Shown: positions 11,455 to 60,985, counted from the first letter of the stretch. The stretch: DNA of 64,000 bases from an uncultured bacterium (GCA_937872535.1 CALMTC010000016.1:41081-105080); one strand, 5' to 3'. A program made the numbers and translations. The notes: generated by a model from the letters alone, not told the origin.

Positions 11455-11830
11455 AGTCTTGTCGTTGCGAGGAGTTACGATGAAGCCTGTCTATTGCAGG
11501 CAGGCTTCGTTTTATTTGCAATGACGGATCCTTTCGACAAGCTCAGGGACCGGAGTAGTGAAAAAAATTTTTGGAATCAAAAAAACTTCTCTGTATTTTG
11601 AGAAGCTTATTGCTGGAGACGCGTCTTTTGCCGCTTCGTGAGAGTGATTGACTCTTTTGCGCAGTAGAGAGAATCTGATCACTTTTCTTTTTTGGCATAT
11701 GTTAGTTTTTTATCGAAGTTACGAATCGTGGATGGTGACATTGGGAGCCACAAGTAATATCTCTATCTCGTCTCGTTTTCGATGTTGGTCACTTTGTTTG
11801 TACCCGCGTTATAGAAAAAAAATAAAATAA
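11455..11830 (+). ncRNA. GC-rich, hairpin-dense region: candidate structured RNA(s), identity unresolved
   Basis: I counted 54 G+C in 11461-11580 (45%) against a much more AT-rich background. It contains a strong stem GAAGCCTG/CAGGCTTC (11482-11508) plus a T-run, copy A of the conserved hairpin element, and further stems CTTCTC/GAGAAG and AGAGT/ACTCT. The strand assignment is tentative. Confidence 0.3.
11529..11574 (+). promoter_or_regulatory. conserved hairpin element, copy A
   Basis: TCCTT-TCGACAAGCTC-AGGGA followed by CCGG...TTTTTGG. See copies at 46629-46676 and 60945-60985. Confidence 0.5.
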
Positions 11831-11936
11831 GTCAATAGATTTTTATTATTTTGTTTTTTTGTCCGTCTTTTTTATTGGTTGTTTTAAAAAAAGCGTTGTT
11901 TCTGCTATTTTTCTTTATAGGAAAGAAGGTGAAAAT

Positions 11937-11964
11937 TTGCCAGAATAAAAATTTTTAGTATAAT
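11937..11964 (+). promoter_or_regulatory. sigma70-like promoter for the PKD membrane protein gene
   Basis: TTGCCA (11937-11942), a 16-nt spacer, then TATAAT (11959-11964). It lies 30 nt upstream of ATG 11994. Confidence 0.45.
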
Positions 11965-11993
11965 GAATTTATTTATATTATGACTTATTTTTC

Positions 11994-14333
11994 ATGACCG
12001 ATCCATTTTTCTTGAAAAAAACTGAAAATTCTGCTCAAAACCAGCTTCCTTGAAAGCAAATTTCTTCAGAATCGTCTTCTCAACAACCAATTGTTCAATC
12101 TGTATCTTCTCCAGGTCCTACTTCTCCAGTGAAGATTGATATGAAAGTAAAGCAGTGAAATAGAGTGAGTTTCAGATGATTTTTGATTTGATGTGGAATT
12201 TTTATGATTTTGTTTGTTGGTTTGATAGCTTTTTGACTTTATTATTTTGCCCTGAATCCTCAAAGTGGTGCTCAATTTTGATTGAGTGCTGCTACCATTA
12301 AAAATCTTTTGACACTATTTGCTCTTTTATTTTTTGGCTTCGTTTTTTTTATTGGTTTTTGATATTCGATTGTTAACGGTTATAGACTGATGACAGTTAA
12401 GGAATGAGCAAAAGGCGCTTTTATATTAGGGCTTATTTTTGGTGTTTTTCTTCTTCTTTTTTCTTTGTGAGCAGGCGTACCGGCTTTGACTAGAATATCG
12501 TCTATAGAAGTGGCTGACCCTACTGTGGCTGCTGGTAGAATTTTGTTGCCTTATTATCAATTAGCTGATGGTAGAGAGGTTTGAATTGATGATCCTAATT
12601 TGAAGAAAATTGCACCAGCTATTATCGTTTTTAAGATGGGGAAAAACTCTTTGAGACAGCTGACTAATCAATTTCCTAGCTTACAAACTGCTGTTTTAAA
12701 CTGTGGAAATGGTCAAACTTTTGATCTTGGTGAATCTGATCCTGCTTGTTTTTTTACTGAAAAGAAAGCTTATCCTTTGACATTAGAGGTTGGTTATCTA
12801 GATGCTAATAGTCGTTCTGTTAAACAAACTCTAGATTTGGGACCACTTAGCTTTGATGCTCAGCTTGATGTTTCGTTGGCAAATGGAGTTCTCTCGCTCA
12901 ATGATAGTAAGTCTGAATTGGTGGCTGGTTTCAATCCTTCTAAAGTGCTTATCAGTGCTCAAAGACTTTTTTCTGATTTACAATTGGCTACCATCTTGGT
13001 AGATTGGGATACTAATGGTGATTTACAGTCTGATTTCACTAATGAAGCTTCTGTACAAGCTGTTTTTAATCAACCAGGACTTCAATTTATTACTTACTCT
13101 TTTCCGGCGCTTGGTAATTATCGTTATGTTCTACCTCTGAGAATCAAACAGTCTGAAAGTCCAGTTTGTTCCATAGATGTTAAAGAGTGAGATCTTAATA
13201 AATATCAATTTTCTACTCTTTTTGAAGATAGTGGCGCTGTTATTAAAGAGTTTTCGTTTGAAATAATCAATGCTAGCAATGGTAAGTCAGTTGCGAGTCA
13301 AAAAACTCGTTTGTCTACTTTTGACTATTCTTTTAAGGATCTTGGTAGTTATTTTGTAAGAGTGAGTTTTCTGACGGACACAGCTAAACAATGAGGCTGT
13401 GAAAGCCAACCTTTTGATGTTGGTAGCAGCTCATTTAATTTAATCTATCGTCTTTTGTATAGAGCTCCACAATCGTCTGTATTTCAAAAATTTTCTTTAT
13501 CTGGTCGTTATAATGCTACAGGAGACTATTATGTTATTCCTGAACTTCCTACCACACTTCAATTTGTCATTGATAAGATTTTGCCAGAAAATTCTACTGA
13601 CAGTGTCAAAGTTTTTCTTAATGATCAACAACTTTTGTCATCAGATGGAAAAACTTTTGAATTTGTCATTAGTAAGGATTCTATAGAACCTTATCGTCTT
13701 GTAACTCAGTTTGTCGATCAGCAGGGTAATACTTTTGATAAAAATATTGTTGTTTCTGTGAAACAACAACCAATTGTTGGTATTATAAAAGTTGATCCTA
13801 GTTATGTTGGAACTGATCCATTTGAGGTTCATTTTGATGCGTCAAGTACTAGATTGGCTGATGAAACTGATGAAATCGTGTTTTTCACTCGAAATTTTGG
13901 TGATGGTGAGGTAGCTAAAAATGTGAGTAAGTGACAAATTTCTCATACTTATGTTTTTGATAATCTTAAAGAATCTGGCAGTTATCATCCTGAAGTGACT
14001 ATAAAAACCAGAAAATGATTAACTGGAAGCTTTTTTACTGAACAACCTATTTCAGTTAAAAGGGCTGAGAGACCTGTGAAAATTCTTATGCAATCTCATC
14101 CAGCTCAGGTGGCTTTAGCTGGTGAAAGAGTCCAGTTTGGTCTTGAAGTGAATGGGCCTATTAGCACAATCATTTGGAACTTTTGAGATGGTCAATCTCA
14201 AGAATGTGAGGGTAGAAGCTGTATTGAAATGACTAAGATTTATGATCAACCTGGTACTTATACTATTAAAGTGACCGTAAAATTTGAAGATAGTCCGTCT
14301 GTGGAACAAGTTGTGAAATTACAGGTAAGATAG
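11994..14333 (+). CDS. membrane-anchored surface protein with PKD domains
   Basis: Stitches 12600-13190 and 13455-13934 in frame 0, giving 779 aa. There are N-terminal TM segments. PKD signatures are (W)NFGDGE...SHTY (13890-) and IIWNFGDGQS...YDQPGTYTIKVTV. Stop is TAG 14331-14333. Confidence 0.7.
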
Positions 14334-14387
14334 GACTTGACATTCTTGATATTTTTCTTATGAATCTGGGACACAAATAAAAAAAAT

Positions 14388-14696
14388 ATGGGGAAATTAG
14401 TCTTGTTTTTGGTACTGCCATTATCCTTTTGGCTGGTGCGAGATCTTTTAAAAGAAGATGACATATCTCATAACAGAGCTTATCAGTATCGGGAGCTTGA
14501 TTCACTTGCTCTTGAGCTTGATAAGCTTGAAAAAAAAATGAATAATAATAGGGAAAGATCGAGAGATCTTGCTGAAGTTATTATTCAGAGTCGATTTTTA
14601 GAGATCGACTTGCATTGCAGTCAAGAAGCTGTTGCTTCTTTAGAAAAAAAACAGGTTTTGACTGAGATTAATGCATGTATTGCATTGCTGGACTAG
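14388..14696 (+). CDS. small membrane-anchored coiled-coil protein, hypothetical
   Basis: Intact track ORF with no internal TGA and a TAG stop. Hydrophobic N-terminus. A terminator follows. Confidence 0.5.
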   Translation: MGKLVLFLVLPLSFWLVRDLLKEDDISHNRAYQYRELDSLALELDKLEKKMNNNRERSRDLAEVIIQSRFLEIDLHCSQEAVASLEKKQVLTEINACIALLD

Positions 14697-14728
14697 GCCT
14701 ACGCTAGCTGATTTTATTTTTGCTCTGA

Positions 14729-14768
14729 TTCCAGAAGGTTTCCTTCTGGAATTTTTATTTTTTTTCAC
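14729..14768 (+). terminator. intrinsic terminator
   Basis: Perfect stem TTCCAGAAGG / CCTTCTGGAA with loop TTTC, followed by a T-run. Confidence 0.7.
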
Positions 14769-14821
14769 TATTCTCAGCGTGTTTCTTACTTTAAAAATTT
14801 TATTTCTGGTTTTTTTGTAGA

Positions 14822-15733
14822 ATGATTATCGGAAATGAGCCTGTTACAAAATCTTTTTCTCACTTGATGAACAGGTATCGTGAAACTGGATTAGTATCTT
14901 TCCCCTTTATTTTAGTAGAAGGGCCAGAACATACTGGGAAAAGTACAATGATTGTGGAAACTATTGAAGAATTTCTTGGAAGTTACCAGAAAAATGATTT
15001 TTTATGGATAAAAGATTGTAGTGATTTTATAGATAGTGGAAAACACCCGTTGAGGGTAACAATTTCTAGCTCTGATAAGGATAGGATAATTAAAATTTCT
15101 AAGACGGAGAGCTATGAAAATCTGGATACCAGGGAGATGATTAGCTGGCTCAGTGTCGCTCCTGTTGGTAAATTTAAGGTGATTTTTCTAGAAAATATTG
15201 AACGTATGACTGTAGCAGCTCAGAATTCTTTTCTTAAGACTTTTGAAGAACCACTACCAGGAAGAATTATCGTGGCAAGCTGTGGCAATAAAAGTGCGTT
15301 ACTTGAGACTATTTTGTCGAGGGCTTTTGTTCTTACTACTCAATTACTAGACTCTGACAGTATGGAAAAATTTGCTCGCTCTCTTGGTGGTGATTTTTCT
15401 GAAGAATATCGTGATTCTGCCCTGGTTTTTGCTAGGGGCAGACCTGGTTATCTTAAGAGGATTTTTGATAATTTTGAGACTTTTGAGCGTGTTTTTCAGA
15501 TTTATCTGGAGTACAAAAAGATTTTTAATAATCCAAGAGAGTATACAAAAAAAAATTCTCTTCTGCAAGAGGTTGTTAAACTCTGACAAATCCAAGAATT
15601 TTTTTATGCTTTGATTTATGATTTTTCTCGTGAAAATAGATCTGATTTGGTTGCTCAATATCTTTCTTATGCTGCTCGTTTTGATCAAAATGTGAAGCCA
15701 GATAGTATTGTTTTTGAATCGATTTTGTGATAA
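14822..15733 (+). CDS. holB: DNA polymerase III delta-prime subunit (HolB-like)
   Basis: Track ORF 14822-15586 extends through TGA to TAA 15731-15733. Motifs: EGPEHTGKST, FLENIERMTVAAQNSFLKTFEEP, TILSRA. Confidence 0.75.
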
Positions 15734-15762
15734 GTTTGTTTTCTTACCAGAAATAGAATTTT

Positions 15763-16617
15763 TTATAGTTTTTCAATCATGGAAGAGATTATTTCATTCA
15801 TGATTTTTGGATTTGTCAGCATATTTTTTCAGTCTCAATGAATAATTCCGTATTGAGTTTCGTTGATAGTCCCATTGTTGATCACTGGTAAACCTGTCGA
15901 GTTTTCTATTTCTCCAAAAATTGGTTTTGGCGAATTTTTTTTGGTATTTGCGATGACAAAAGTACGGCCATTGTGATTCACTGCAAAAGTATGTTTTTTT
16001 ATTCTGCTTTGGGCTAAAAGTTTTTCGATTATTTTTTCATAAAAAACTTTCATGATTTCATGTTGTTTTCCGTAGAGTAGTGGGGAGGTGAAAATTTCAT
16101 CTCGATTTTCTGTTGGTTTTGCTGGTATAGTAAATCAGTCTGCTAATTCTATAAGAAGCTCGCCATTTTTATAATAGCAATTTATATTGTCTTGTTTAAA
16201 ATCAAAGTCGAATTCATCTTTTTTATATCTTCGTTTACTGAGTAGAGAACTTCTTGGTTTTGGGAGTTTTTGATTTTCTATTCCTTCTATAAAATCTGTG
16301 TTTTGTTCTTTCATAATTGAGTTGAAGGCATCTGATAATAAAGGTAGTCCTTTTGTGATGCTTTGTATGTTTTCATATTTCCCTGTTTTCTTGAGAGTGT
16401 TTTCATTGAATGATTCTCATTTGTGTTTTACAATGAGCTCATCATTTCCACTGATAGTTATAGAAGAGTCTCAAACTCTCATTTCTCCTGTTTTTTCAAT
16501 TTGTTTTTTTATCAAAATTTTATAGAGATCTATTACACAGTGTGTCAAAATAATTTGATTTTTAGCTTTATCTTTTGTAGGTTCTTGTTTTAGAATTGCT
16601 TCTATAATACCTAACAA
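15763..16617 (-). CDS. orphan protein B5 (last gene of the minus-strand orphan operon)
   Basis: The frame is open from 16707 to TAA 15763-15765 and contains track ORF 15835-16053. There is no in-frame ATG near the 5' end. I chose TTG 16617, which is preceded by AAGGAAGA. The start is uncertain. Confidence 0.4.
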
Positions 16618-16710
16618 TCATCTTCCTTGAGAAGAAATTTTTGGCAGAATAGTATTTTCACTTCATGAAATTTTTATTTCTGCTGTCATCGTGTCGAGAG
16701 AATGGATTAC

Positions 16711-18561
16711 TAGTCCTGTAGATATATTGATTTTTGAGTTGTCAGGAAGTTCTATTTCTTTATTTATCAGAGGATTTTTCTCATTATCTAGTCCTTCGAA
16801 AAAACTCATATAATTATTGTCAGTTATGTTTTTCATTACAAGTTTTTGAGCTTGTTGGTTTTGGGTATCTTTCCAGTATGATTTTAATTTTTCATACTGA
16901 TTTCATCTTATTTTCATAGTTGGTCTTTCGAGTGAACCAAAGTAGTTATCACTATTTACTTGAAGATTTGTTAAGAGAGGACTGATAAAATTATTTAGTA
17001 CACTTGAGGCTCTATTTCTATTTCTTTCTTCTGGAGTAATTTCTGCTCAGACTAATACTCCGTTGATGATTTGAGTTATTGCGGCATCTTTGGAAGATAA
17101 TTTTTCTTGAATTTTTGCTTTGAGTAGATTTTCAGCTTTTGAGAAAAATCAATTTGTATTATCTCATCTTAACTCATTTTGTATGTGTTTTTTGAAATCT
17201 TCGTCATTCCCGTTAAAATTTTTTATTTCTAAAAATGATCAGGCTATTAAACAATCGCTTTGTAGGTTTATTGCTTGGTAGCTGATTGGATTGTATTCAT
17301 TATTTATTATTTCTGCTTTGAGAGCATCTTTAGTTTGTTGAGAAAGAGCTATATAGGGAGGTTTTTTTGAGTTTATTGTATTTTCAAGCAATTCGTCGAG
17401 CAAAGCAATGTGTTTATTATCATAAACTGTTTTTGCACTGGTTTCGATCTGTGATTGAAATGAACTTATGATTGCAGTCTGATTTGAACTTACGAGAACT
17501 GGTTTGTTGATTGTAATTTTTATTTTTTTTGATGCTTTTATTTTTATATCTCTTTTTCAGTTAGAACTTTTTATCTCTTGTGTGGCAGAAATCTGAAGAT
17601 TGATTGTTTGTGGTAGAGTAGCTGTTTTACCAGTTGTTTGATTAATTAGTTCGATGTTATTTGTAGAAAGTTCTCCTGTAGTGGAATTTATTTCTAGACC
17701 TTTTATCGTTATCGTTTCTCCAGAATCTGTCAAAATATCTTTAATCTCAGCTCATGAAACTGATTTATCTTTTTCTGTCATTATGCTGTAGTTTCGAGAA
17801 CCACTTGGTATTTGTTTGAAAAGTAAATTTTCTGCTTTTAATAAGCTTGGATTACTATTTTTTTCTTCTATATTTAAATCTCCAATTTTCTTAATGTGTT
17901 CTATCTCTTCAGCTATTTTATTGATTTTTTCGTAGTCTATTTTTAGCTCTTCTTGTTCAGTTTTTTTCTTGTTTAAATCAGTAATTGTATTTTCAATATT
18001 TTCAATTTCTTTTGGTAAAACTTCTGTTTCTTTTTCTCTTCTGTTTAGTTCATTTTCTCGTTTTGTGATTTCAGTATTAATATCTTTTAGTTTATTGGTT
18101 TCAAAAAAATAAATATTCTTTGTATTTTGATTGTTTGGACTTAAATTTCGATTGTTATATGCTGTTTCTACCTTATTTTTTTGAGTTTCTCATTCAGTTT
18201 TTTTGTTGTTGAGGTTTGTGTTTATTTCTTCTAAACTACCTGAAAGTGCAGGATTTGATTTGTCTTCAAGAGTTTTTAGTCTGTTTTCTTTTTTAATTTT
18301 TTCAGTTTCCAGATTTTTAATTTTTTCATCAATTTCTCATAGATGATCTTCTAGACTATCGTGAAGAAAATTTATTTCCCTTTTGGTATTTTTGAATGTA
18401 GCGTTATCTGAAATTCTTATTTCTTCAAGAGCAGAAAAGAGATCATCGAGTGTTTTGATGATTTGGCGACTTATTTTATGAGGTTTATTCACATCTTGAG
18501 TGAGTTCTGATATGTTTTTTTGTAACTCCAGAAGAGTTTCATTCGTTTTAATATTTCCCAT
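16711..18561 (-). CDS. orphan coiled-coil protein B4 (616 aa)
   Basis: From ATG 18561 (track ORF 18337-18561) I checked every in-frame TAA/TAG. The first is the tandem TAG TAA at 16713-16708. The protein is E/K/N-rich with heptad-like sequence and no recognisable domain. Confidence 0.6.
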
Positions 18562-18689
18562 TGGGATGCAGTAAAAATAAAGCTTTGCTTGATTATAAAA
18601 TAAAATACAAAAAAAAGCAAATTTCTATCACTTTTAGTGTAAAAAATGCTTTTAGAGTTGGCTTTATCTATTGAATTTTTGATAAATTT

Positions 18690-29706: not shown

Positions 29707-30664
29707 TTCTCTTATTGCTGAACTGATGGACGAAAAAAATACTGCTTCTGTGGAAAATAACTCAGGATCTGAAAAAAAAGAGGCTGAAAAAGTTGTTCTT
29801 ACTAGTAAACAGGAACTAGACGCTTTGAAAAAAAATATTGATGACTCTAAGGATGATAAGGAAAAATTTGAAACAATGGTGGATTACGTGGCTTGAAAGA
29901 TTCTTAAACTCATGGTTTATGAAGCTATGCAGATTAAAGAAGTTGTTTGAGAATCAAATTCTACTATGTTTGAAGTTCTTGATTTTTTTGGTATCAATCC
30001 TATTGAAAGTGTTATTTCTGAACTACTTGATGATGGGGCTATGAGTAAAGTGTGATTAGCTTTTCTGAGAAAAAAATATACGAGCTCTGAGAGTATTAAA
30101 CTTCTTGATAGTATTGAAACGATAAAGGGTCAATTACCAACTCTTACTAATCTTGATGCTTGTGTGAAATTTGCTCAGAAGTATGATATTCCATTGCCTG
30201 ATGGTATGCTTTCAAAAACTTCTGAACAAGCTACTTGAACATCAGTGGAAACAGTTTCAAAGAATCCATTTATTGCAATGAGTGATGAATTGAAAGCTGA
30301 AAAACTTTCTCATTCTGTGATGGATTATTCTAAAAAACAAGACAAAAGTTCAGATATTTCTGGTTTGGTTTGATCTGGTATGCTTATGGATATAGAGAAA
30401 TCACTTGGTTTTTTACAAAAAAACTTCGTTCCAAATAATGAAATCTCCTTTAAGGATCTTACTAACTCAATTTCTACTAATGAATTAACTGTGTGAGATT
30501 GGATTATTACTGAAAAAGATGGTAAAAAATTTATTTATCTTCTTGTTGAAAAACCAAAAGATGGTAAAGTAAAAGTGGCTTGAAATGATCAACTTGTCGA
30601 TCTTTCTGCTGTTTCTTACGCTGGAAAGGTTGATTATCAAAAATTACAAGAAAAAACTTCATAA
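29669..30664 (+). CDS. orphan protein C2 (331 aa)
   Basis: Frame 2 is open from ATG 29669 to TAA 30662-30664 with several in-frame TGA. It overlaps the C1 end by 38 nt. An alternative in-frame ATG is at 29726. Confidence 0.55.
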
Positions 30665-30689
30665 AAAATTTATTTTCTGCTCAAAAACT

Positions 30690-31454
30690 ATGACATTTTA
30701 TTCACTAGATTCTCAAGAAAGAAAAACTAGCAATGCCGTTCTGGAGAAAGATGTTTCTCAAGAAACTACTCAGGCTTTGGAAGCTCATAAAGATGATGTT
30801 GTGAAGATGGCTGGTATAGTTGGTGCAGCTTTTTTGGCAGATAGTTTTTCTGATTCGAAACCAGAAGAGAAACTTTCGTGGAAAGAAAAATTGAAAAAAC
30901 AGTTTTCTAGGGAGAAGAAAAATACTGAAATTGTTGATAAAAATACTGAAAAGGTAGTAGAAAAAAAAGAAGAATCTCTTGCAGAGAAAAAGATTGTTTC
31001 TGCAGAGAAAAAAAATTCTTCAGATGATAAAGAAAATTTCAAGGATTTTGAGGCAATTGAATCATCTGGAATTTTATATCAAAATGGTTGTACTATGTGT
31101 TCTAGGACGGCTAGACTCGATGCAAAAAGTATTTTTGGTGTAGATTTACCATCAGGGAATGCTAGAGATAGTTTTTCAAATCCTATCTTGGATAAAGGTT
31201 TTCTCTGAACTGCAAAAGATTTTTCTCAGGATAGCTGAAATTTTGCTGATGTCTTGGTAGAACCACCAAAAATGAAATTTAGTGAATATGGTCATAGATT
31301 TATTGCTTTTCGTAATCAGAGGGATGGACAGTGGTATGGTATTGATCCTTATGTTCAACACCGTCAAGTAAAACCATTTTTGATAAAAGATTATTTTTGG
31401 AGAGATAGAATTATTAAAGTGAACTATTATGATTCTCCTATAAAAATTTCTTAA
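30690..31454 (+). CDS. transglutaminase-like (papain-fold Cys-His-Asp) domain protein C3
   Basis: Stitches 30585-31208 (from ATG 30690) and 31254-31454. The middle is K/E-rich. The C-terminal block is YQNGCTMCSRTARLDA...YGHRFIAFRNQRDGQWYGIDPY. This matches the transglutaminase-core pattern G-C...H-x-W/F...G-W-x-x-x-D-P. Confidence 0.55.
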
Positions 31455-31555
31455 TATTGTCGATTTTTACCTCTTTTTTGAGCATTATTTTAAATTTGCA
31501 TCGATGGTTTTTTTATATATAACCTCGGTGTTTTTTTTACTTATTTTTTAGAAAG

Positions 31556-46605: not shown

Positions 46606-46628
46606 TTTTTTTATAAAACCAGAATAAA

Positions 46629-46676
46629 TCCCGATCGACTCTATTGATGGTCTTATCGGGACCGGAAACTTTTTGG
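46629..46676 (+). promoter_or_regulatory. conserved hairpin element, copy C
   Basis: A 7-bp stem TCCCGAT / ATCGGGA with a TCGAC-containing loop, followed by CCGGAAAC and TTTTTGG. Confidence 0.5.
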
Positions 46677-46824
46677 AAACCGGAATTTTTATTATTTGAT
46701 TTGTTATATATTTTTTGGCTTTGTAGTCCACTTATTTTTTACTATTTCTTCGAGAAAGAAAAAAAATGCTCAGAGAGTGAGAAAAGAGTCAGCGAGATTA
46801 AAAATAGGGAATGTGCTTATTTGA

Positions 46825-49800
46825 ATGAAATCTCTGACTCATCAGAGTCGGATTCTATCTATGAGATTGCCGATTGTTCATGAAAAAACTAGTATGAATG
46901 TGATTGGCGAAATTATCTTTTTTTTGAGAAAGAAAATCATTGCTAGGATTGCACAGAGTGATATCAAAATTATGAGAACTTGGGGGACGGGAAACGAAAA
47001 TGAAACTCAAGTATTGAAGGCTTTTGTGATGAATGGAAAATTTGTTCATCGACTGAGATCGTATGCTATATATTTGCTTATTTGATCAAAAACTATCAGA
47101 ATTAAACTTATTATAATAATACTTTTTTGATATTTCATTAGAGAAAAACTTTTAAAAACTAAAAAAACTTTCTTTGTTTATTGAAATGATTTGGAAAATC
47201 TAGATTTTGATCAAGAATTTTGTTTATTTATTCTTAAGTGTGTACATTTTTTGTCAAAAAAATGATTGTTTGTATTTTTAGAACCAAAATTTGACAATTT
47301 TTTGTTTTCTGCTTATAGTATTTGTGATGTTATTTATTTTTTCTACTCAATAAAAATGTTTTTCTCTCAAAAATCTAAACTTCAATTGAAAAAAAAAATC
47401 CAGAAATTTAATGTAAGAATTTTTTCATTAGGGATTGTCTGTTTTTTGATCGCTTGATTTACCTTTATGCTTGTAGAGAGTATTGTTTCTCCAGTTCTGA
47501 CCTATGCAAGCTGGACTAGTAATGATGACTATGTTGATGATTCTTTTTGGGCGGGAAACCCTAGTGATTCAGATATTATTTCTGCTTTTTTTGGAGATGG
47601 GCAGCTTGGTACTGATTCTACTGCTTATAGTCAACGCTGGAGCGGAGCTCTTTGCGATACTAGCTTGATGACTGTTGAACATATTTCTAGTTTGGCTGGG
47701 CCATTTAATTCTTGAACTATTTATATTTTAGATCAATGAACATATACTGTCTTTACTAGAATTATACTAGATAGTTGTTCTGCTCTTGTAAGTACCTGAT
47801 GAGTTACTTTGGTGCAGGATTCTTCTTTGAATGATGTAATTTTGTCGATGGATGGTGTTAATAATGTTGTTGTTGATTGAATTAATTTTGATTGAGGAGG
47901 TTTTCCTTCTACTTATGTATTATCCTTGGATAATTCCGTGAATATCACTTTCCATGCTATTGATATGAGTAATTCTTCTGCAACTGCTCTTGCTGCTTTA
48001 AATTCATCTTCTGTTAGTGTTTCTCATTCAGATTTTGTTTGAAATCAATTTTGAATTCAGGTTCTCAATGTTGATGGTTTGTGGTTTGATAATATTTTTG
48101 TTTCTGGTTCTACTTCACAATGAATTGTTGTTAATAATTCTACTGGTCTTGGTATGGAATACATAGAAATCTCTCATTCATCTCAATGATTAAATATTTT
48201 GAATTCTTATTACTCGGGTCAAGTTATTCGTTTTCTTGATCTACATGATAATACTAGCAATATTGGTCTTGCTCAGATAGATCATCTAACGATATATGGT
48301 ATTCGTTCTTATAATTCAGATTCTTGTGTTACTGTTTCGTCTTTACATTTTAGCTATCTTTATGATTTTGTAGCTTATAATTGTAGCTTGTATGGAGTAC
48401 AAATTTCTTCTTCAGATTATTCGGTTTTTGATGATTTTATTGTTTTTAATAATTATAATTGAGTTTCTTTGCCTGGTAACAATAATTCTATTTTTTCAAA
48501 TTTTCTAGTTTATAATAATTCTAATATTGCATTTTTTATCAATTCATCTTCAAATAATAGTCTAGTAAATATTCGTGCTTATAATAACTATATCTTTTTG
48601 AATTCTGATACTTTGTCATATAATAATAAGTATTATGGTAATCTTATACTCAAAGATAATGCTGTTAATTTTATTGTTACTAATGCTAATGATTTTTTCT
48701 TCTCTCCGTGAAATGATTCTTTCTATCCAGGTTGGAGTGCTTGAGTTTTGCAGACAGGATCTTTAGGTTCAGATATTAGTGATTTTGTTTTGAATCCAGT
48801 TAATGAGAATGGTACTTATTTTTATTCTCTCACTGGTAACGCGTCTTTCAGATGATATACTGGTTCATGGAGTGGAAAAACTTCTCAATATCTTTATTTT
48901 TCTGAGTTGCCAAAACAATCTTCAGGTGTTATTTATCATGATACAATTCTGACTAATTCTACAGTTTTTCCTTTTAACTCTGATCTTTTTATTACTGATT
49001 GAATATTTTCTTGATATCTTTATGGACAAGACTTTTTCGGTTGAAGTATTGATCTTCTTTCTCAGTGAGATGCTATCATTCATAAAAATATAGGGAAATA
49101 TTTTACTAATCATACTGGTGTCTTTACTTTGAAGCTTAATGTTTCAGAGGATGCAGAATATAGTTTTTTTGGTGATTTTGTTACTGGTAGTAGTCTATGA
49201 GTTACCGGATTTATCAATGGAGCGAATTTGACGGGTGATGTTCTTTTTACGAATTGAACTGGTAAAAAAATTTTAGTAGCTCAGTTTACTACAGGAAGCA
49301 AAATTTCATCTCGCTACTGAATTTACTTGAATTATGATTTTTCTGCTCCGACAATTTCGATAGTTGCTCCTTCTAGTGGTGCTCACTTTTTGTATGGTAC
49401 TGCCTTAAATCTTTTGGTCTCTGGTGATGATTTAATAGGAGCTTGATTCCACTGATTTGATTATGAGGTATCAACTTGAGATTCTATGAGTTTTATTATT
49501 TATAGTGGTTTTGCTTCTTGAAATGTAGCTGTGTTACCATCTTTGGTCGATAATATTTATTATGTGAGAGTCAGAGGAAAAGATTTTTTGTGAAATTATT
49601 CTGCATGGACTAATGTTAGACCTTTTTTTATTGATGCTCCTAAGGCTAATTTATCTTTGACTAATAATGTTCCTTTTGGTTCGCAATCGGGAGAACTTCT
49701 TTCGATTCTTTATACATATAATAATATTGGTCCTGATTTGGCTAGAAATGCTGTATTTTCTTTAGTGCTGCCGAGCTGATTAACTTTGGTCAATAGTAGT

Positions 49801-50973
49801 TTAACTGCTAGTGGAAGTACTGGTAATTACTCATTTTCTCTTTGAGATATTTTGGCTGGAGGGATAGGTAATATAAGTTTACAGATTTTAGTCAGATCTC
49901 AAGGAGTTTACCAAATTGGCGGAAATATTTCTTCTACTAGTATTGATTCTATACTTTCTAATAATCTTTCAACTGGAAATACTATAGCTTCTGGTAATTA
50001 TCAATGAGCTCCAGTTGTCATCTCAGCTGGAGGAGGTGGATGATGATGAGGTGGAGGTGGATGATGAGGTGGAGGTGGATGATGAGGTTCTACAATTGTA
50101 AACTATGGCTCTACGATTGTTGTTGTTAGAAATGACGAATTACCAAAAAATACTGGTTCTATTGTCCCAATTTATAACAGTGCAACATTCAAAGAATCTC
50201 TTCCACAAAATATTTATCCAAGACTTACTACTCTTATTGCTTCATATCAAAATCAAGAAAGAGGGAAATGTATTTTTGGAAATCAAGCTCTTCAAGTTCT
50301 TGTCTTTTCTGATATCAATCAAGATCCAGAACAGTGATCTATCCAAGCTTTACTTGATCGTTGCCTTGTGAGAGGGAAAGGTAAATTGCAGTTTAAACCT
50401 GAAGAAAAGGTGACTCGTGCTGAGTGGATAAAAATGTTGATAGGTACATTATCTTATGATCGTGATGTTACTCAACTTCCTGTTAGAAATGTTGCTGGTA
50501 GTTATCCTGATCTGATTTATAAAGATTGATCTTTTCATTGGGCTTATGATTATATTTCATTGGCTGATGGCTTTGGATTACTTCGTTTCCTTGATCAAAA
50601 TACTGGAGAAAATTTTGAGCCTGAGAAGCTTATTACTCCACAAGAAGCTTATAAAATGCTTCGTTCTGTTTATCGTTTGATTGATAAAAAGACAGATTCT
50701 TTACCACTTGTTGATTCTGGTGTGACTATGAGTAGATCTCAAGTATCTGCATTTTTGGTTGAAGGGTTTTCTATTCAGCCATTTATTCCAAAGGCAAATA
50801 TTGATTTTTTAGCTTCTTTTAAAGCTATTCTTAGTGGTTTACCAACTGCGAATCATGGTGAAGCCTTTGAAACTCTTTCTCGTATGCTTCAAAAAACTCG
50901 TTATATCCAAGCTTTGAAGAAAAAATGAATTAATGTTTCTCAACTTAAAAAGGATTTAAGGATGTTTCAGTAA
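46825..50973 (+). CDS. giant surface protein: parallel beta-helix repeats, poly-Gly linker, C-terminal SLH-like domains
   Basis: Frame 1 is open (TAA/TAG only) from 46600 to TAA 50971-50973. The first ATG is at 46825. A classic signal-anchor start, MFFSQKSKLQLKKKIQKFNVRIFSLGIVCFLIAGFTFMLV, is at ATG 47356 and is the alternative start. N/S-rich NxxxI beta-helix-like repeats span 47.8-48.7 kb. A run of 20 Gly is at 50029-50088. An SLH-like FSDINQDPEQGSIQALLDRCLVRG...TRAEWIKMLIG follows. Confidence 0.65.
50029..50088 (+). repeat. coding poly-glycine tract (20 Gly, 7 of them TGA codons)
   Basis: The sequence reads GGA GGA GGT GGA TGA TGA TGA GGT GGA GGT GGA TGA TGA GGT GGA GGT GGA TGA TGA GGT. 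It is in the frame of the surrounding gene. Confidence 0.85.
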
Positions 50974-54330: not shown

Positions 54331-54395
54331 AAAATAGATGATTCTAAGTAATATTTTGAGACAATGTTTTAATTTTTTGAAACTTTGGTTTAAAA

Positions 54396-55076
54396 ATGTG
54401 AATAAATTCTGCTGAAGTTCGTATGGAGGAAAGTTGGAAAAAATGCTTAAAATCTGAATTTTCTAAAGAATATTTTGGGCAGATAAAAAATTTTTTATTG
54501 GAAGAGCAAAAAAATGGATTTGAAGTTTTTCCACCTCGTTCCCAAATATTTTATGCTTTTGAGAAAACTCCTCTTGAGAAAGTGAGAGTAGTAATTCTCT
54601 GACAAGATCCTTATCATTGAATAGGACAGGCTCATGGGCTTAGTTTTTCTGTGCAGAAATGAATCACTTTGCCTCCTTCACTGAAAAATATTTTCAAGGA
54701 AATTGCTGAGGAGTTTGGTGGTGAGCCGTCTAACGATGGAGATCTGACTCGCTGGGCTGATCAGGGAGTTTTTTTGCTCAATGCGATTTTGACGGTGAGA
54801 AAAAATCAGCCGGCCAGTCATAGCGAAATAGGTCGACAGTATTTTACTGATGCGGTGATTAAAAAACTGAGTGATGAAAGGACTGGAGTGATTTTTTTGT
54901 TGTGGGGAAAATTTGCTCAGTCTAAAGAAAGTCTGATAGATAAAACTCGTCATACGGTCTTGGTGGCACCTCATCCGTCTCCTTTTTCTGCTCATTCTGG
55001 GTTTTTTGGCTGTGGACATTTTAAAAAGGTAAATGACATTCTCAAAGAAAGAGGTGAAAAAGAAATAATCTGGTAA
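54396..55076 (+). CDS. ung: uracil-DNA glycosylase (family 1)
   Basis: Motifs: GQDPYHGIGQAHGLSFSV (two Gly from TGA), LLNAILTV, IG(CGA)QYFTDAVI, HPSPFSA. The alternative start is ATG 54423. Confidence 0.9.
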
Positions 55077-55106
55077 CTTTATTTACTTATATTTTTCTTA
55101 TTTTTG

Positions 55107-55835
55107 ATGCAACTTTTTTTGACTGACTGGGTAGAAAAAAATAATGAAATTTTTATTTCTGATGATCGTGTTTCTCATCAGATGAAAACTGTCTTGAGAG
55201 CTAAGGAGTGAACAGAATTTTTTGTACAAAAAAGCAGCGATGAAAGTGCTTTAAGAATGAAAGTCAGACTAAAAAATTTTGATGATAAGAAAACCATTAT
55301 TGCTGGTATTGTTTCTCAAGAGGGACAAAAAAATGAGATAAAATCACTGGAAATGTATGTGGCGATGCCAAATAAGTTTGATAAATGTGAACTGATTGTT
55401 CAAAAACTGGCTGAGATTTGAGTGTCAAAAATTGTTTTTTGGGTGGCTGAGAGATCTCAGATTCGTGAACTGAGTGAGCAAAAACTTGAGAGACTAGAAA
55501 AAATAGCTGTGGAAGCAGTAGAGCAGTCTCGAGGCTGGCAGATCCCTCGTCTTAGTTTTGAAAAAAATTTTTCTTCTGATGGTTTCAAAAAAACTGATTT
55601 TTTTTGTGTTTTTGATGCCGGTGAAAAAAGTGTGAATCCTTTTGATCTTTGAAAAATTCTTTGAGATTCAGAAAAAATTGTTTGAGTGGTAGGGCCAGAG
55701 GGAGGTCTTTCTCCAAAAGATTATGAGCTTTTTGGCTGAAAAGAAAGGGTAGTGAGCTTGGGAGGAACTATCTTGAGGATGGAAACTGCGGCTATCGTTG
55801 GCTGACGATTGCTGAGAAATCTGAGTCGCTGATAG
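55107..55835 (+). CDS. rsmE: 16S rRNA m3U1498 methyltransferase RsmE
   Basis: Frame 0 includes track ORF 55422-55652. Motifs: VEQSxGW, VVGPEGGLSPKDYE, SLGGTILRMETAA. It ends ...CGC TGA TAG at 55827-55835. Confidence 0.75.
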
Positions 55836-56064
55836 GAATCTGGAGAACTTTTTTTCTGCTCTGATGGCCTTGAAGTATCTTAATATCTGATTTTCTGGCA
55901 GAAAAAAGTGTGGCTATTTTTTCTAGGAGAGCTTTATTAGCTTCACCGTTGATTGGCTTGGCGCGGAGTTTGAGCTTGAGAAATTCAGCTCAAAAAATAT
56001 CTTTTTCGTAGTACTGAGATTCTGTTTTGGCTCAAGTAATTATTTCGATATTGACTATTTTCAT
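55792..56064 (-). CDS. DUF167 (YggU-like) protein
   Basis: A 90-aa ORF from ATG 56064. LKLRAKPINGEANKALLEKIATLF...ILQGHQSRKKVLQI matches the DUF167 pattern A.P..G.AN..L..fLa......v.i..G..sr.K.v.i. It overlaps the rsmE 3' end by 44 nt (convergent). Confidence 0.55.
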
Positions 56065-56162
56065 GGAATGTAGCCAGAAATAAATTTTTTTTAGATTAGT
56101 TATTTGAAAGTAAGTTTCGAGAGAATGTGAGAAAATCTTGACTTTTTTGTAATAATTGCTAT

Positions 56163-56759
56163 ATGACTGATGCTGGAATAAAACCCCCCAGCGTAAAAAA
56201 AATGACTTATAAAAAAAGTGTACACGAAGAGGCTATTACAATAGCTTTGCAACTGAATGAAGTTATCAGATCATCTGATTTTCCTTATTATTCACTCAGC
56301 CTCTATGCCGATTCGGTATTGGGTTTGAAAAATATGAATAATTTGATGCCTTCAACGATAAAATTAGAAGATTCTCTTGATGAATCTCTGTTTGTTGTCG
56401 TAGGGAAAATTCCATCAGGAAAAAAAATTTTTTACCTTGTAGGAAAGGAATCCTTAGATGGTAATCTTGATTTATATCTTTGTCTTACTAAAGATAAAGA
56501 TATGTTAAAAATTAAGAATTTTGTAACGGGTGAATTATTGCCTTTTTTGCAGAAAAAACGCATTTTGACTGAGGAAGCATGTTTTGATTCTCTTGTCGGT
56601 GGAATTCCTGTGGATATTGATTGTTTTTATGTTTTATTACAATACTTTATGGCAATTGGCTGTAAGGCTGCTTCCTGAAGTATACTGATTTGGAGACTGG
56701 TATTTCTGCCGGTCTTTTTTTATTTTTTTGATGTTTCCTTGAAAATTAGAGGTGTATAG
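56163..56759 (+). CDS. hypothetical protein (171 codons to a TGA, 198 to the first TAG)
   Basis: Track ORF 56163-56678 has no internal TGA. Its terminal TGA (56676-56678) is followed 16 nt later by a terminator hairpin. Under table 25 the frame runs on to TAG 56757-56759. Confidence 0.45.
56694..56729 (+). terminator. intrinsic terminator
   Basis: Stem AGACTGG / CCGGTCT (one G-U pair), an 8-nt loop, then T5 and further T-runs. Confidence 0.65.
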
Positions 56760-56843
56760 CTAGATTGGAAGCATGATATGTCGATCAAGTTTTGTGATGG
56801 TCGAGTATAAAAACTTTAGAATGTGTTAATGTAAAGAAAAATA

Positions 56844-58898
56844 ATGAATAAAAATATTCGTAATTTCTGTATTATTGCTCATATCGATCATGGTAAGTCG
56901 ACTCTGGCTGATAGAATGCTTGAGATTACTGGGACGGTGAGAAAGCTAGAACATAGTCAAATGCTGGATAGACTTGATATTGAGCAGGAAAGGTGAATTA
57001 CTATAAAACTTACGCCGGCTCGTATGCAGTGGAAAGGTCATGAATTGAATCTGATTGATACTCCAGGGCATGTTGATTTTCAGTACGAGGTGTCTCGTTC
57101 GCTGGCTGCTGTGGAAGGAGCTGTTTTGTTGGTAGACGCTTCTCAGGGAGTCCAGGCTCAGACGCTTTCTGTCTTGTATTCAGCTATGGATTACTGATTG
57201 GAAATTATTCCTGTACTTAATAAAATTGATTTGCCAGCAGCTAATCCTGAGAGAGTAGCTCAAGAACTTCAACATTTGCTTGGTATCGATCCAGAAAGTA
57301 TCATCAAAGTGTCGTGAAAAACGGGAGAAAATGTGGATCAAGTTTTGGATGCTATCATAGAAAGAATAGAGGCGCCAGAGAAAACCAGAAATAAAACTTT
57401 GGATAAATTTTTTCAGTCTGGTTTTGAAAAATATGATGGTTTGATTCAAAAACAAGTTTCAAGAGCGCTTATTTTTGATAGTGTTTATGATAAATATAGG
57501 GGAGTGGTTTGTTATGTTAAAGTGGTGGATGGGAGTTTTGCTATAGGCTCTCAGGTGAGATTGGTTTATTCGGATACAACGATATCGCCGACGGAGGTTT
57601 GATATTTTACTCCAGAATATCATAAAGATCGTCAGCTATCTGCTGGGCAGATTGGCTATATTGTGACGGGACAAAAATCGGTGAGAGATGCAAAAATCTG
57701 AGATACGATGTTGGTGATGAGCGAAGTTTCAGACTCGCAAAGTTGAGAAACTTTTACTCAAAAAGATCGTAATTTTGTCAAATGAATTACTATCCCATGA
57801 TTTAAAAAAGTGAAGCCGTATGTTTATGCTGGAGTCTATCCGATTGATAGCAATGATTTTGAAAAACTGAGGGAAGCTTTTGGTAAACTAGCACTCAATG
57901 ACAGTGCTGTGGAGTTTGAGTATGAAAATTCTAAAGCGCTGGGCTATGGTTTCAGATCTGGATTTTTGGGGATGCTTCATATGGATATCGTCAAAGAAAG
58001 ACTCTATAGAGAGTATAATCTCGAAACTATTTTTACTATTCCTTCTGTGGTCTATCTGATAAAACTTAAAATTCTGACGCATGAAAAAATAAAAACGGGA
58101 ACTAATGTAATGGAACTCATTAAAACGGGTCTCTTTATTCATATTATTTCTGATTTTACTGGTAGAGTTTCTGCTGAAGATCAGGAGCTTATAGCTACTA
58201 AGACTGATTCTGAATTGGCTAGTATCTATGCTGATAAGCTAGGATCTTGGATCTTGGCTACTTCTGGTGCTGATATGCCAGAGCAGTGAATAATTGACCA
58301 GATTTATGAGCCTTATGCTGATGTCGAGATCGTAGGTCCAAAAGATTTTAGTGGAAATATTATGGAGCTGGCTCAAGAATACAGAGGAGAGATGAAGCAT
58401 ATGGAGTATATTGATCAGCAAAGAATTTTGTGGAGATATCATATGCCTTTGGGAGAGCTGATTATCGATTTTTATGATAGATTGAAATCTTCGACAAAGT
58501 GATATGCTACGATGAACTATGATTTTAGACGCTATCAAGAGTCTGATCTCGTGAGATTGGATGTGTTTATCAACGGTGATAAGATTGAAGCTTTTAGTAT
58601 GGGACTTCATAGAGAAAAAGCTTATAGTCAAGGAGATGAAATAGTTACTAAACTTAAAGAGCTTATACCTAAGCATCTTTTCCCGATTCCTCTTCAAGCT
58701 GGTATCTGAAGTAAAATGATCGCAAGGGAGACTATTTCTGCTATGAAGAAGGATGTCTTGGCGAAGTGTTATGGATGAGATGTATCCAGAAAAAGAAAGC
58801 TTTTGGAAAAACAGAAGGAGTGAAAAAAGAAAATGAAGGCAATCTGATCAGTGAATGTACCAAACGATATTTTTATGAAAATGATGCAAAGAGATTAG
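56844..58898 (+). CDS. lepA: elongation factor 4 (LepA)
   Basis: Stitches 57333-57602, 57810-58289 and 58512-58709 in frame 0. Motifs: [26 protein letters not shown] (Gly from TGA), [38 protein letters not shown]. Stop is TAG 58896-58898. Confidence 0.95.
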
Positions 58899-58919
58899 AA
58901 AAAGTCTTTTTGAGAAAAA

Positions 58920-58944
58920 CCTCTGGCAATACCAGAGGTTTTTT
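58920..58944. terminator. bidirectional intrinsic terminator
   Basis: Perfect stem CCTCTGG / CCAGAGG with loop CAATA, an A-run 5' and T6 3'. Confidence 0.7.
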
Positions 58945-58952
58945 GATTGTGA

Positions 58953-59360
58953 TTACGGCATTTTTGGTGCAAATTTTGCCGTTTTGATGTGTTGTTGGGC
59001 ATTTGATTTTTTTTTGTTTTTTTCTTTTTCAACCAGTAAGCTTTGGAAAGCTTCTTTTGTTCTATTGTTTTTCCAAGCTTCTTTTAAGTCTTTTTTAAAG
59101 TCATCTTCCGTTTGGAAGGAGCTGGCGAGTATCGTTTTGATTTCCCATTTCCCATAAGTTATTTCAACTTTGGTGGCTTTTTTAGTTCTTCTTACCTTGA
59201 TAGAACTTGTTTGCGTTTTGAACGAAAAAACTTTTTTCTGATTTTCGCTCATTTTTTGGAGCAATTGAATAATTGCTCTGAACACGGATTCTTCAGAAAT
59301 TCCGTTTTCATTGTCTGAGCTGTCAAGCTCGAATGAGATTTTTGACTGAGATTTTTCCAT
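58953..59360 (-). CDS. hypothetical basic protein
   Basis: Intact track ORF with a TAA stop and no TGA. No domain recognised. Confidence 0.45.
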   Translation of the reverse strand: MEKSQSKISFELDSSDNENGISEESVFRAIIQLLQKMSENQKKVFSFKTQTSSIKVRRTKKATKVEITYGKWEIKTILASSFQTEDDFKKDLKEAWKNNRTKEAFQSLLVEKEKNKKKSNAQQHIKTAKFAPKMP

Positions 59361-59507
59361 TTTTTATGTTCGTTATTTTGAACAACTTTCGTATAATTAA
59401 AATATCTACAATGTCAATGTTATTTTTTTATCTGGTTTTTTTCTATTTTAAAAGTATTGTTTGTGAGTTTATCAGAAAATAATTTTTTATGTTTTTATTT
59501 TTGAGGT

Positions 59508-60470
59508 ATGGATAAGTTGGGATTATTGAGAGAAAAAATTGAGCAGAGCAGTACGATAGCTCTTTTTGGTCATGAATATATTGACGGTGATTGTATGGGG
59601 AGTATGATTTGATTTTGAATGATGCTTGAAAAAATGGGTAAAAAAGTTTCGTATTTTACACCGATTGCACCGAGTTCTTATTTTTCGTTTCTCAATTTTA
59701 AAAAAATGGAGACTGATTTTTCTTATAAAAACTATGATTGTTTATTTTTTTTGGATTTTGGAGCTTATAGTCGTATCTGAGGCTTTACAGCTGGGAAAGA
59801 ACAATACTTTCAGAGTTCTCAACTGGTTGTGATAGATCATCATCCTTTTGTAGATCCAATAGGAACTCTTCGCTATGTGGATGTCGAGGCTAGTAGCAAC
59901 TGCGAATTACTTTATGAGATTTGCAAAGAACTTTATCCTGAACTCATTGATGAAAAAGTAGCGACTGCTTTCTATATGGGATTGACGACTGATACTGGTA
60001 ACTTTTCTTTTGAAAAAGATTCTCTTAGGACTATGAAAAATGCTTATGAACTTCTTCAGTATGGAGTGGATAAAAGAAAATTACTCCAAAATCTTTTTGG
60101 CAATAAATCATTTTTGGCTGTGAAGTTTGTACAGCTTTTGATTGAAAGGCTAAAGCTTCAGGATGGTCTGCTGTATACTTACTGTGAAGAAACTGAAATG
60201 CAAGAATATGGGCTGGAAAAAGATGAAGCTGAAGCAGGAGTAGGTCTGATACAGTCGATCTGAGAGGCTAAAGTTTTTCTTTTTATGAGAAGATTTGGCG
60301 ATGTGATCAAATGTTCCTTAAGATCAAAAGGTGGTATTGATGTTAATGCTATTGCTCAAAATTTTGGCGGATGAGGTCACAAGGCTGCTTCTGGCTTCAA
60401 AGTGCCTGTACAATGAGATTTTTTAAAACAGATTGAAGAGATTGTATCAGGAGTAAAGAAATTTTTATAG
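59508..60470 (+). CDS. nrnA: DHH-family phosphoesterase (NrnA-like)
   Basis: ATG 59508 in frame 0 includes track ORF 59829-60263. Motifs: GHEYIDGDCMGS, VIDHH, DTGNF, and DHHA1 NFGGGGH with TGA 60372-60374 as one Gly. Stop is TAG 60468-60470. Confidence 0.8.
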
Positions 60471-60490
60471 ATTTTTAGTCAAAAAAGAAA

Positions 60491-60518
60491 ACGGAGGCTG
60501 ATACGCTTCCGTTTTTTT
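60491..60518. terminator. bidirectional intrinsic terminator
   Basis: Stem ACGGAGGC / GCTTCCGT (one G-U pair) with a 6-nt loop, an A-run 5' and T7 3'. Confidence 0.65.
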
Positions 60519-60522
60519 GTAC

Positions 60523-60792
60523 TTATGGCTTTTTTAACTTGAATACGATCAATTCTTTTTGATCATATAGGTTAATAGACAGTGAAAAATTTTTTTCATT
60601 TTCTTGGTCGATGCCAAAAATTCTTTTCAGATCTTTGATGAGATATTTTCTTAAAATATCATCTTTTATGAGTAAGAAATTTAGCATTAAATTGGATATA
60701 TCCAATCTACATATCCAATCTGAAGATCTTACTTTTTTTAGAATTCTTCTGATTTTTACGAGCTCTCTTAGCGCTCTTGTGTTTGTTTTCAT
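60523..60792 (-). CDS. hypothetical small basic protein
   Basis: Intact track ORF with a TAA stop and no TGA. No domain recognised. Confidence 0.4.
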   Translation of the reverse strand: MKTNTRALRELVKIRRILKKVRSSDWICRLDISNLMLNFLLIKDDILRKYLIKDLKRIFGIDQENEKNFSLSINLYDQKELIVFKLKKP

Positions 60793-60944
60793 AATTTTTT
60801 TATTTCCCTAGATGGTAGTAAACAGTACTCTAAAATCAAGTTTTTTATCGAAATTTCTGACTATTATAACTTAAAAAGTTTTTATTCTGGAAAATGCTTA
60901 TTTCTGCTTGAGAAATATTCTCTTTTTCGTAGAAAAAAGGTATT

Positions 60945-60985
60945 TCCCTTCGATATACTCAGGGACCGATGATGGAGTTTTTTGG
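60945..60985 (+). promoter_or_regulatory. conserved hairpin element, copy B
   Basis: TCCCT-TCGATATACTC-AGGGA followed by CCGATGATGGAG and TTTTTTGG. It lies about 70 nt upstream of ATG 61054. Confidence 0.5.

Follow-up and report, generated by a model that had tools for sequence, protein, structure and literature searches.

The DNA examined here is a 64-kb stretch from an uncultured bacterium (GCA_937872535.1, CALMTC010000016.1:41081-105080; hereafter, the window), and its subject is a short hairpin that is present at three look-alike sites, designated copies A, B, and C (Table 1). A first-pass annotation, made from the sequence alone, had described these sites as a conserved element, each copy preceding a large surface-protein gene. 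The existence of the three copies was borne out: all three sequences matched that description letter for letter and on the + strand. The composite motif GGGACCG-N(4-30)-TTTTTGG occurs three times in the window, compared to 0.01 expected from dinucleotide-preserving shuffles, and AGGGACCG occurs twice, compared to 0.11 expected. The shorter word GGACCG is found four times in the whole 64 kb, and three of these occurrences are copies A, B, and C. The three sites are not chance. Neither core words, nor a mismatch search, nor the family model described below (run with filters off) revealed further weak copies in the window, and no copy was found in the 6.8 kb past its right end.

The reading of the genes around the copies depends on the genetic code. 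Under the standard code the window contains almost no long open reading frames (ORFs), whereas with TGA as a sense codon the ORFs reach 1921 codons (bounded by TAA or TAG). PheS translated with TGA as glycine is 100% identical to an NCBI protein of a Candidatus Absconditabacterales metagenome-assembled genome, and a run of 20 glycines in a giant protein (positions 50029-50088) is encoded by GGA and GGT codons mixed with seven TGA codons. On the basis of the long ORFs with TGA as sense, the PheS identity, and the glycine run, the genetic code is therefore table 25; the window is Candidatus Absconditabacterales DNA in which TGA is read as glycine.

Gene calls made with table 25 weaken the link between the copies and the surface-protein genes. 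Copy A lies in a spacer of ∼730 nt between the divergent pnp and PKD-domain genes, and copy B lies ∼70 nt 5′ of the TSP3/PKD gene. Copy C occupies the gap between two − strand genes, 28 nt downstream of the lspA stop codon and 24 nt upstream of the pheS start codon. The lspA gene is antisense between copy C and the SLH/beta-helix giant gene, where it had been masked by an over-extended + strand ORF (46825-47355). Thus, a large surface-protein gene directly follows copies A and B, as the first-pass annotation had it, but not copy C, where lspA intervenes. The earlier domain calls for the three large proteins (PKD, beta-helix/SLH, and TSP3/PKD) were correct according to Pfam. The public gene calls for the contig (products of 1380 to 1398 aa) appear to carry the same false extension of the giant gene and to omit lspA.

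A hairpin family with the core CCCT-TCGACARGCTC-AGGG plus a short tail is spread over many phyla and phage-like contigs. One genome per species, for 185,579 species, was scanned with the pattern TCCYTTCGAY-N6-AGGGACCG, which leaves six loop bases free, and at least 177 matches in at least 117 loci were found. The matches fell in Actinomycetota, Bacteroidota, Treponema, Lachnospiraceae, Syntrophaceae, Vicinamibacteria, and Kapaibacterium, with Planctomonas, Microbacterium, Aeromicrobium, Enemella, Prevotella, Saprospiraceae, Chitinophaga, Lewinella, and others among the genera and higher groups represented. The loop TCGAC[AG][AG]GCTC was present in 170 of the 177 matches listed; the free bases read AGGCTC in 89 of them and AAGCTC, as in copy A, in 39. 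Because the free loop bases agree, copy A has TTCGACAAGCTCAGGGACCG in common, letter for letter, with a repeat found in multiple phyla.

The family was also found outside species genomes. The core CCCTTCGACARGCTCAGGG was present in at least 120 viral contigs (L156-L275, IMG/VR), in which an earlier, comparably specific pattern had given one match. In these contigs the forward strand of the family coincided with the G-rich strand in 79 loci, compared to 26 loci for the opposite arrangement. A plasmid search gave a few matches, which were intergenic and unannotated. A metagenome scan with TTTTTGG included in the pattern returned 23 matches, most of them due to chance, and the only family members among them were L129, L130, and L141; of the other matches, three fell at the 3′ ends of tRNAs and one (L135) in coding sequence. 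No Rfam model for the family was found, since 15 family-rich loci gave nothing save one tRNA.

The family unit consists of a short stem, CCCT/AGGG and often GTCCCT/AGGGAC, that closes a nearly invariant 11-nt loop, TCGAC[AG][AG]GCTC. The stem varies, with 233 instances of CCCT/AGGG, 42 of CGCT/AGCG, 12 of GGCT/AGCC, and 5 of CACT/AGTG, in addition to rarer types. Among 94 distinct related sequences, 91% of the cells pair and 63 cells have two-sided changes, compared to 21 in shuffles, a level that was reached by none of 500 shuffles and by no slid control; selection of these sequences depended on the inner four pairs but not on the pair types or the two outer pairs. A repeated element of the hairpin type is thus real, with a stem that covaries at the level of the family. 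The support for the hairpin comes from this covariation and not from folding energy, as the isolated hairpins of copies A and B fold as RNA no better than shuffles (z = +0.7 and +0.9) and copy C is modestly stable compared to shuffles (z = −1.9). The T-G to C-G difference between copies A and B, which had been taken as consistent with pairing, is real, but it is a one-sided change only.

The 3′ side of the unit is also conserved. In an alignment (A2) built from the scan that required AGGGACCG, conservation at tail positions C27, C28, and G29 is 90% or higher. The viral sample shows no constraint on the sequence 5′ of CCCT, and its 3′ tails fall into the classes CGAACGG, TGAGCGG, TGACnn, CAGGC, CAAGC, and ACCG; the last of these is a minority class in this unbiased sample (6 of 139). 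The tail classes are held even without an upstream pairing partner, and the conserved unit is therefore asymmetric.

Units are arranged in several ways. Head-to-tail arrays with a period of 23 to 35 nt are present in L032 (2020-2450) and L070 (5686-5834), inverted pairs and clusters are present in L129 and in Vicinamibacteria, and single units occur too. A survey of flanking genes in Bacteroidota, Treponema, and others showed neighbors that are mutually unrelated housekeeping genes (MFS, HAD, thioredoxin, Lgt, a DinB-type polymerase of the IMS family, ABC permease, GH130, ClpB, enolase, QueF, and TPR), and the orientation of the hairpin relative to the flanking genes is mixed. Apparent ORFs run through several copies, including viral ones, and translation of these copies would give PSTGSG or FDRLR linkers. 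Translations of the core (FDKLR.., PSTGSG, LSLSKG, and PELVEG) resemble strings known from spurious hypothetical proteins, and the viral tail classes agree with this resemblance. The core with its commonest tail, GGCTCAGGGCGAACGG, also resembles, at 14 of 16 positions, the 5′ end of bacterial 16S rRNA directly past the 27F primer site (GGCTCAGGACGAACGC), a likeness that could be due to chance (rough estimate, ∼0.03).

Membership of the three window copies in this pan-bacterial TTCGACARGCTC hairpin repeat, as defined in this analysis, was assessed by loop, stem, tail, and covariance model. The loop of copy A, TCGACAAGCTC, is exact to TCGAC[AG][AG]GCTC. The loop of copy B, TCGATATACTC, has three mismatches to the main loop and one to a recurrent variant, TCGATAAACTC. 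In the Kapaibacterium array (L070) this variant and the canonical units alternate, and two viral contigs carry it with other stems; copy B is identical to the variant unit CCCTTCGATAAACTCAGGGACCA at 21 of 23 positions. Its altered loop includes TATACT, which is like a −10 box. Copy C has a 19-nt loop that starts with CGAC and ends with CTT, and thus lies outside the loop consensus. The stem typical of members, with U-A and C-G beside the loop and covarying pairs further out, was found in all three copies, as CCTT/AGGG with one U-G pair (A), CCCT/AGGG (B), and TCCC..GGGA plus GAT/ATC (C). The tail of the ACCG subtype was likewise found in all three as GGGACCG. A covariance model (R1) was trained on 94 members of the family that belong to other organisms and run over the window with filters off (Table 1); for copies A and B its scores are partly circular, as the training loci were fetched by a pattern taken from A and B. 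What links copy C to A and B is TCCC..TCGAC..CTTA..GGGACCGG plus TTTTTGG, and the probability that a third match to GGGACCG-N-TTTTTGG arose by chance is ∼0.01. Judged from these sequence comparisons, copy A is a family member and copy B is a diverged family member, whereas copy C is a local relative whose membership in the family is doubtful.

Table 1. Hairpin copies, covariance model matches, genes, and predicted signals in the window.
Feature	Position	Strand	Description
Copy A, whole site	11529-11574	+	Sequence as read in the first-pass annotation
Copy A hairpin	11529-11549	+	TCCTT / loop TCGACAAGCTC / AGGGA; near-consensus member of the pan-bacterial hairpin repeat
Copy A 3′ part	11550-11574	+	CCG tail (in family consensus AGGGACCG), 15-nt spacer, TTTTTGG
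Copy C, whole site	46629-46676	+	Sequence as read in the first-pass annotation
Copy C hairpin	46629-46661	+	TCCCGAT / 19-nt loop / ATCGGGA
Copy C 3′ part	46662-46676	+	CCG tail, 5-nt spacer, TTTTTGG
Copy B, whole site	60945-60985	+	Sequence as read in the first-pass annotation
Copy B hairpin	60945-60965	+	TCCCT / loop TCGATATACTC / AGGGA; putative diverged member
Copy B 3′ part	60966-60985	+	CCG tail, 10-nt spacer, TTTTTGG
Copy A against R1	11524-11554	+	36.1 bits, E = 1.8e-7 (partly circular)
Copy B against R1			16.5 bits, E = 0.04, borderline (partly circular)
Copy C against R1	46629-46661	+	No match at E ≤ 10
Rest of window against R1			No credible match; one 9-nt partial at E = 7.8
pnp	9129-11264	−	
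PKD-domain gene	11994-14333	+	
lspA (signal peptidase II)	46704-47138	−	ORF with TGA as sense; Pfam Peptidase_A8, E = 1.7e-25
TSP3/PKD gene	61054-64000	+	
Predicted sigma70-type promoter, PKD gene	11937-11964	+	TTGCCA-16-TATAAT, 11/12; consensus match only
Predicted sigma70-type promoter, SLH/beta-helix giant gene	47291-47319	+	TTGACA-17-TATAGT, 11/12; consensus match only
Promoter-like site at copy B	60930-60959		TAGAAA-18-TATACT, 9/12; formed by the altered loop of copy B
Terminator-like 14-bp hairpin	11479-11511	+	Just 5′ of copy A; arms AGCCTGTC / GCAGGCT

Relatives of the window were searched for the element. The same DNA is present in ENA contig ERZ27240679 k141_210548 (147,658 bp) and in GCA_035329245.1 and GCA_035329205.1; these are strain-level contigs with identical copies and are therefore uninformative on conservation. 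In ∼50 kb around the nearest PheS relatives (61 to 66% identity; three pheS loci), no copy was found. The TSP3/PKD protein is conserved as a single-copy orthologue of ∼950 to 1000 aa across SR1/Absconditabacteria, at 35 to 39% identity, and by its sequence it is not a lineage-specific surface protein. At five orthologue loci (L151-L155, which include the complete RAAC1 genome), ordinary promoters lie upstream and the hairpin is absent. The search of related genomes gave no further copies, either at these five loci or in 179 kb of Absconditabacteria DNA in total, where the family model returned copy B itself and nothing more. In four distinct related genomes (five loci), the neighborhood of the TSP3/PKD orthologue includes rpsP-rpmG and a truncated uvrB-like gene.

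The spacer that holds copy A has features of its own. The terminator-like hairpin just 5′ of copy A (Table 1) may, tentatively, be a decayed head-to-head pair of units, as its arms resemble the family loop core in both directions; this likeness was judged by eye against the inverted pairs in L129 and Vicinamibacteria, and family model R1 gave no match at the hairpin. The hairpin is preceded by TTGTCA-17-AATATA. The pnp-PKD spacer from 11440 to 11720 (+) is a hairpin cluster (−84.6 kcal/mol; z = −2.9) and may be a small structured RNA. Within the copy A spacer, Rfam searches at E ≤ 10 gave chance-level matches only, and ARAGORN found no tRNA or tmRNA in the window. An NCBI contig of the same organism begins inside this spacer, ∼189 nt before the PKD gene. 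Elsewhere in the window, the largest apparent gap in the gene map (30665-31555; 891 nt) contains overlapping ORFs at 30573-31454 (+) and 30698-31348 (−).

Among known systems, the family is most readily compared to REP-type elements, for which general properties of short palindromic repeats were taken from PMC3733652 and PMC12306157. Like the REP/BIME elements of Enterobacteria and Pseudomonas, which are associated with RAYT Y1 transposases, the family consists of imperfect palindromes in the range of 20 to 40 nt that are mostly intergenic, multicopy, and noncoding, form tandem or alternating clusters, show compensatory changes in the stem, and presumably act as single-strand hairpins. In contrast, REP/BIME families are specific to a species or genus and are defined by a stem plus a GTAG tag, whereas here an 11-nt loop is invariant across phyla and viral contigs. 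REPs that are mobilized by RAYTs are present in high copy and mainly between convergent or same-direction genes, and they typically flank the RAYT gene; here, three copies were found in ∼71 kb, with copy A between divergent genes, copy B upstream of a + strand gene, and only copy C between same-direction genes. No Y1_Tnp or RAYT was found in precomputed Pfam matches, which covered the genes at ∼11.8 to 24.7 and 35 to 70.8 kb, and none was seen in the annotated parts of the fetched loci.

A multiphylum distribution is also known for CGTC-tagged repeats, which occur in Proteobacteria, Chlorobi, Bacteroidetes, Spirochaetes, and Thermotogae (Di Nocera et al. 2013, PMC3733652). The consensus of the present family starts with cGTCCCT, placing CGTC at its 5′ foot as in those repeats. 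The text of PMC3733652 does not contain the core words of the family, so that identity with any of its four CGTC families is conjectural. The window copies differ from both the CGTC-tagged repeats and the wider family consensus in that neither foot tetranucleotide, GTAG or CGTC, is present at their 5′ feet (A, ACGGATCC; B, GTATTTCC; C, ATAAATCC).

The subterminal hairpins of IS200/IS605 elements and of their miniature derivatives are likewise small, recognized in single strands, and inserted with strand bias, which may be compared to the preference of the family for the G-rich strand in viral contigs and to three of three copies in the window. Unlike IS200/IS605, no left-end/right-end pair, transposase, or target tetranucleotide was found, and the units are ∼23 to 35 nt. 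Rickettsia palindromic elements are small palindromic repeats that can insert in frame into protein genes, and the several family copies inside apparent ORFs are reminiscent of them. Those elements, however, are ∼100 to 150 nt and occur in Rickettsia only, whereas the present unit is about five times shorter and pan-bacterial. Riboswitches and leaders share with the window copies an intergenic, same-strand placement and a hairpin with conserved unpaired nucleotides; unlike them, the family shows a variable distance to the start codon, no associated gene family, tandem arrays, both orientations, and no retention at orthologous loci.

Taken together, we consider it probable that the three sites are REP-like miniature hairpin repeats without a gene-specific role, one near the consensus, one diverged, and one doubtful. 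The arrays, inverted clusters, mixed neighbors, phage-like contigs, and copies within ORFs argue for a REP-like selfish or structural repeat and not for a gene-specific regulator. In single-stranded DNA or RNA the element would form a hairpin, and it would be multiplied by a trans-acting enzyme that recognizes the invariant loop, much as Y1 transposases handle REPs and IS200/IS605 ends. The strand bias in viral contigs fits such a single-strand mechanism. GC skew is positive along the entire window, making the + strand the G-rich strand, and the three copies are all on that strand in a single orientation. The window copies would most likely be insertions or relics tolerated in the intergenic spacers of a small genome. 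With the window copies, this very widespread REP-like repeat gains a new, low-copy occurrence in a code-25 Absconditabacterales genome.

Several points weigh against this interpretation. The scan pattern was derived from copies A and B, leaving the six free loop bases as the only independent evidence for copy A; copy C gave no match to R1, and the 2.27 Mb of fetched loci contained no copy-C-like variant. The copy count rests on ∼71 kb of the genome, and no publication was found that names the family or holds its core words. All three copies face the same way as large downstream genes on the + strand. TTTTTGG follows GGGACCG after 15 (A), 10 (B), and 5 (C) nt, is specific to the window copies, and lies outside the consensus of the wider family; on the + strand, the intergenic DNA of the window contains it at the three copies and once more, in the copy A spacer. 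Such a distribution points either to a local function or to a unit that is longer locally, and a model of REP-like repeats leaves the genome-specific TTTTTGG unexplained. A mobilizing enzyme was sought by all-against-all clustering of ORFs around the 117 loci, and the only recurrent neighbor was a DUF222-HNH gene, confined to 11 Microbacteriaceae loci and absent elsewhere, including the window.

The DUF222-HNH endonuclease gene (∼450 to 560 aa) is flanked on both sides by hairpins, within tens of nucleotides, at loci from Planctomonas and other Microbacteriaceae (L019, L025, L032, L035, L041, L058, L064, L067, L071, L083, and L097). The upstream hairpin was antisense to the gene in the loci checked by eye. 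The gene and its hairpins may form a mobile unit, or the gene may home into hairpin arrays.

A broader proposal, which goes beyond REP-like repeats and which we regard as unlikely, is that the mini-hairpin represents an unnamed class of element whose loop is read by a conserved trans-acting factor and which spreads in a strand-specific manner, with the TTTTTGG-extended copies of this genome domesticated as modules close to promoters or at transcript boundaries.

A rival reading is a promoter-proximal module for which a foreign repeat would have been co-opted, the hairpin or its double-stranded inverted repeat serving as a protein-binding site and TTTTTGG(A/T)(A/T) serving as a −35-like element (TTGGAA or TTGGTT), with each copy driving or modulating rightward transcription. 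The common direction of the copies and the large downstream genes would suit such a module, as would the presence of TTTTTGG 3′ of all three copies and its near absence from the rest of the intergenic DNA. A −10-like TATTTT lies 17 nt past TTGGAA at copy A. At copy B, the altered loop yields TAGAAA-18-TATACT, a promoter-like site that might serve the TSP3/PKD gene, and the orthologue promoter in L154 is TTTTTGGAT-17-TATAAT. However, the spacings of 15, 10, and 5 nt, in steps of about half a helical turn, misfit the fixed geometry of an activator and a promoter; the −10 candidates after copies B (TAATGG) and C (TTGATT) are poor; and the promoter scan reported no promoter that uses TTGGAA or TTGGTT. 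Far better predicted promoters lie beside the start codons of the genes after A and C, ∼30 to 37 nt 5′ of the ATG in both cases, and are thus ∼400 nt 3′ of copy A and ∼620 nt 3′ of copy C, from which a rightward transcript would cross lspA antisense. Weighing these observations, we find a promoter-proximal module improbable.

Comparably improbable is a functional RNA or DNA structure of the REP type, acting as a 3′-end stabilizer, weak terminator, or insulator as described for E. coli REPs. Copy C is an example: on the − strand it follows the lspA stop codon by 28 nt and is followed by TTTATTCTGGTTTTAT, making it a candidate lspA 3′ hairpin before pheS. Elsewhere, family copies are often 10 to 50 nt past stop codons, the copy in L048 tips an outer stem of an A-run and a T-run that is like a bidirectional terminator, and the copy A spacer is a hairpin cluster that folds better than shuffles (z = −2.9, + strand). 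At copies A and B, however, no called gene ends in either orientation, and the two hairpins are thermodynamically weak. In addition, no T-run directly follows the stem, and the orientation of the family relative to flanking genes is mixed.

Other candidates were tried at the three copies and rejected. By eye, neither a sigma54- or ECF-type promoter nor outer A-run/T-run stems acting as terminators matched consistently at all three. A small conserved peptide was rejected because the 15-, 10-, and 5-nt spacings put the copies in three frames, and the overlapping ORFs have no common peptide.

The role implied by the first-pass annotation, a dedicated cis-regulatory RNA leader (riboswitch-like or protein binding) for genes of large extracellular proteins, is very improbable and already largely refuted: the PKD and TSP3/PKD genes, whose domains were confirmed, have copies A and B as their closest upstream repeats, on the same strand, and no known RNA family matches (no Rfam match at the gathering threshold in the window, in agreement with the earlier statement that no known riboswitch or leader fitted), but lspA separates copy C from the giant gene, predicted promoters lie 3′ of A and C, the distances to the start codons are 465 (A), ∼730 (C), and 110 (B) nt, five TSP3/PKD orthologues lack the element, adjacency in two of three cases is not significant with ∼8 large surface-type genes among ∼43 (estimate, ∼0.09), and the hairpin is scattered beside unrelated genes in many phyla, also in tandem arrays, a spread regardless of gene type that the annotation itself had named as fatal to its proposal.

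For this candidate-phyla-radiation bacterium, these results provide no evidence for a new riboswitch-like leader of surface-protein genes, and a tempting false lead is removed. For the family, a unit of ∼23 nt with an invariant loop is near-identical in Actinomycetota, Bacteroidota, Spirochaetota, Bacillota, Acidobacteriota, Absconditabacterales, and viral contigs; it gives rise to spurious ORFs and is a probable cause of broken assemblies, and it merits a proper description beyond this window. Identification of the factor that reads the loop would account for a short repeat that is among the most widely shared in bacterial DNA.

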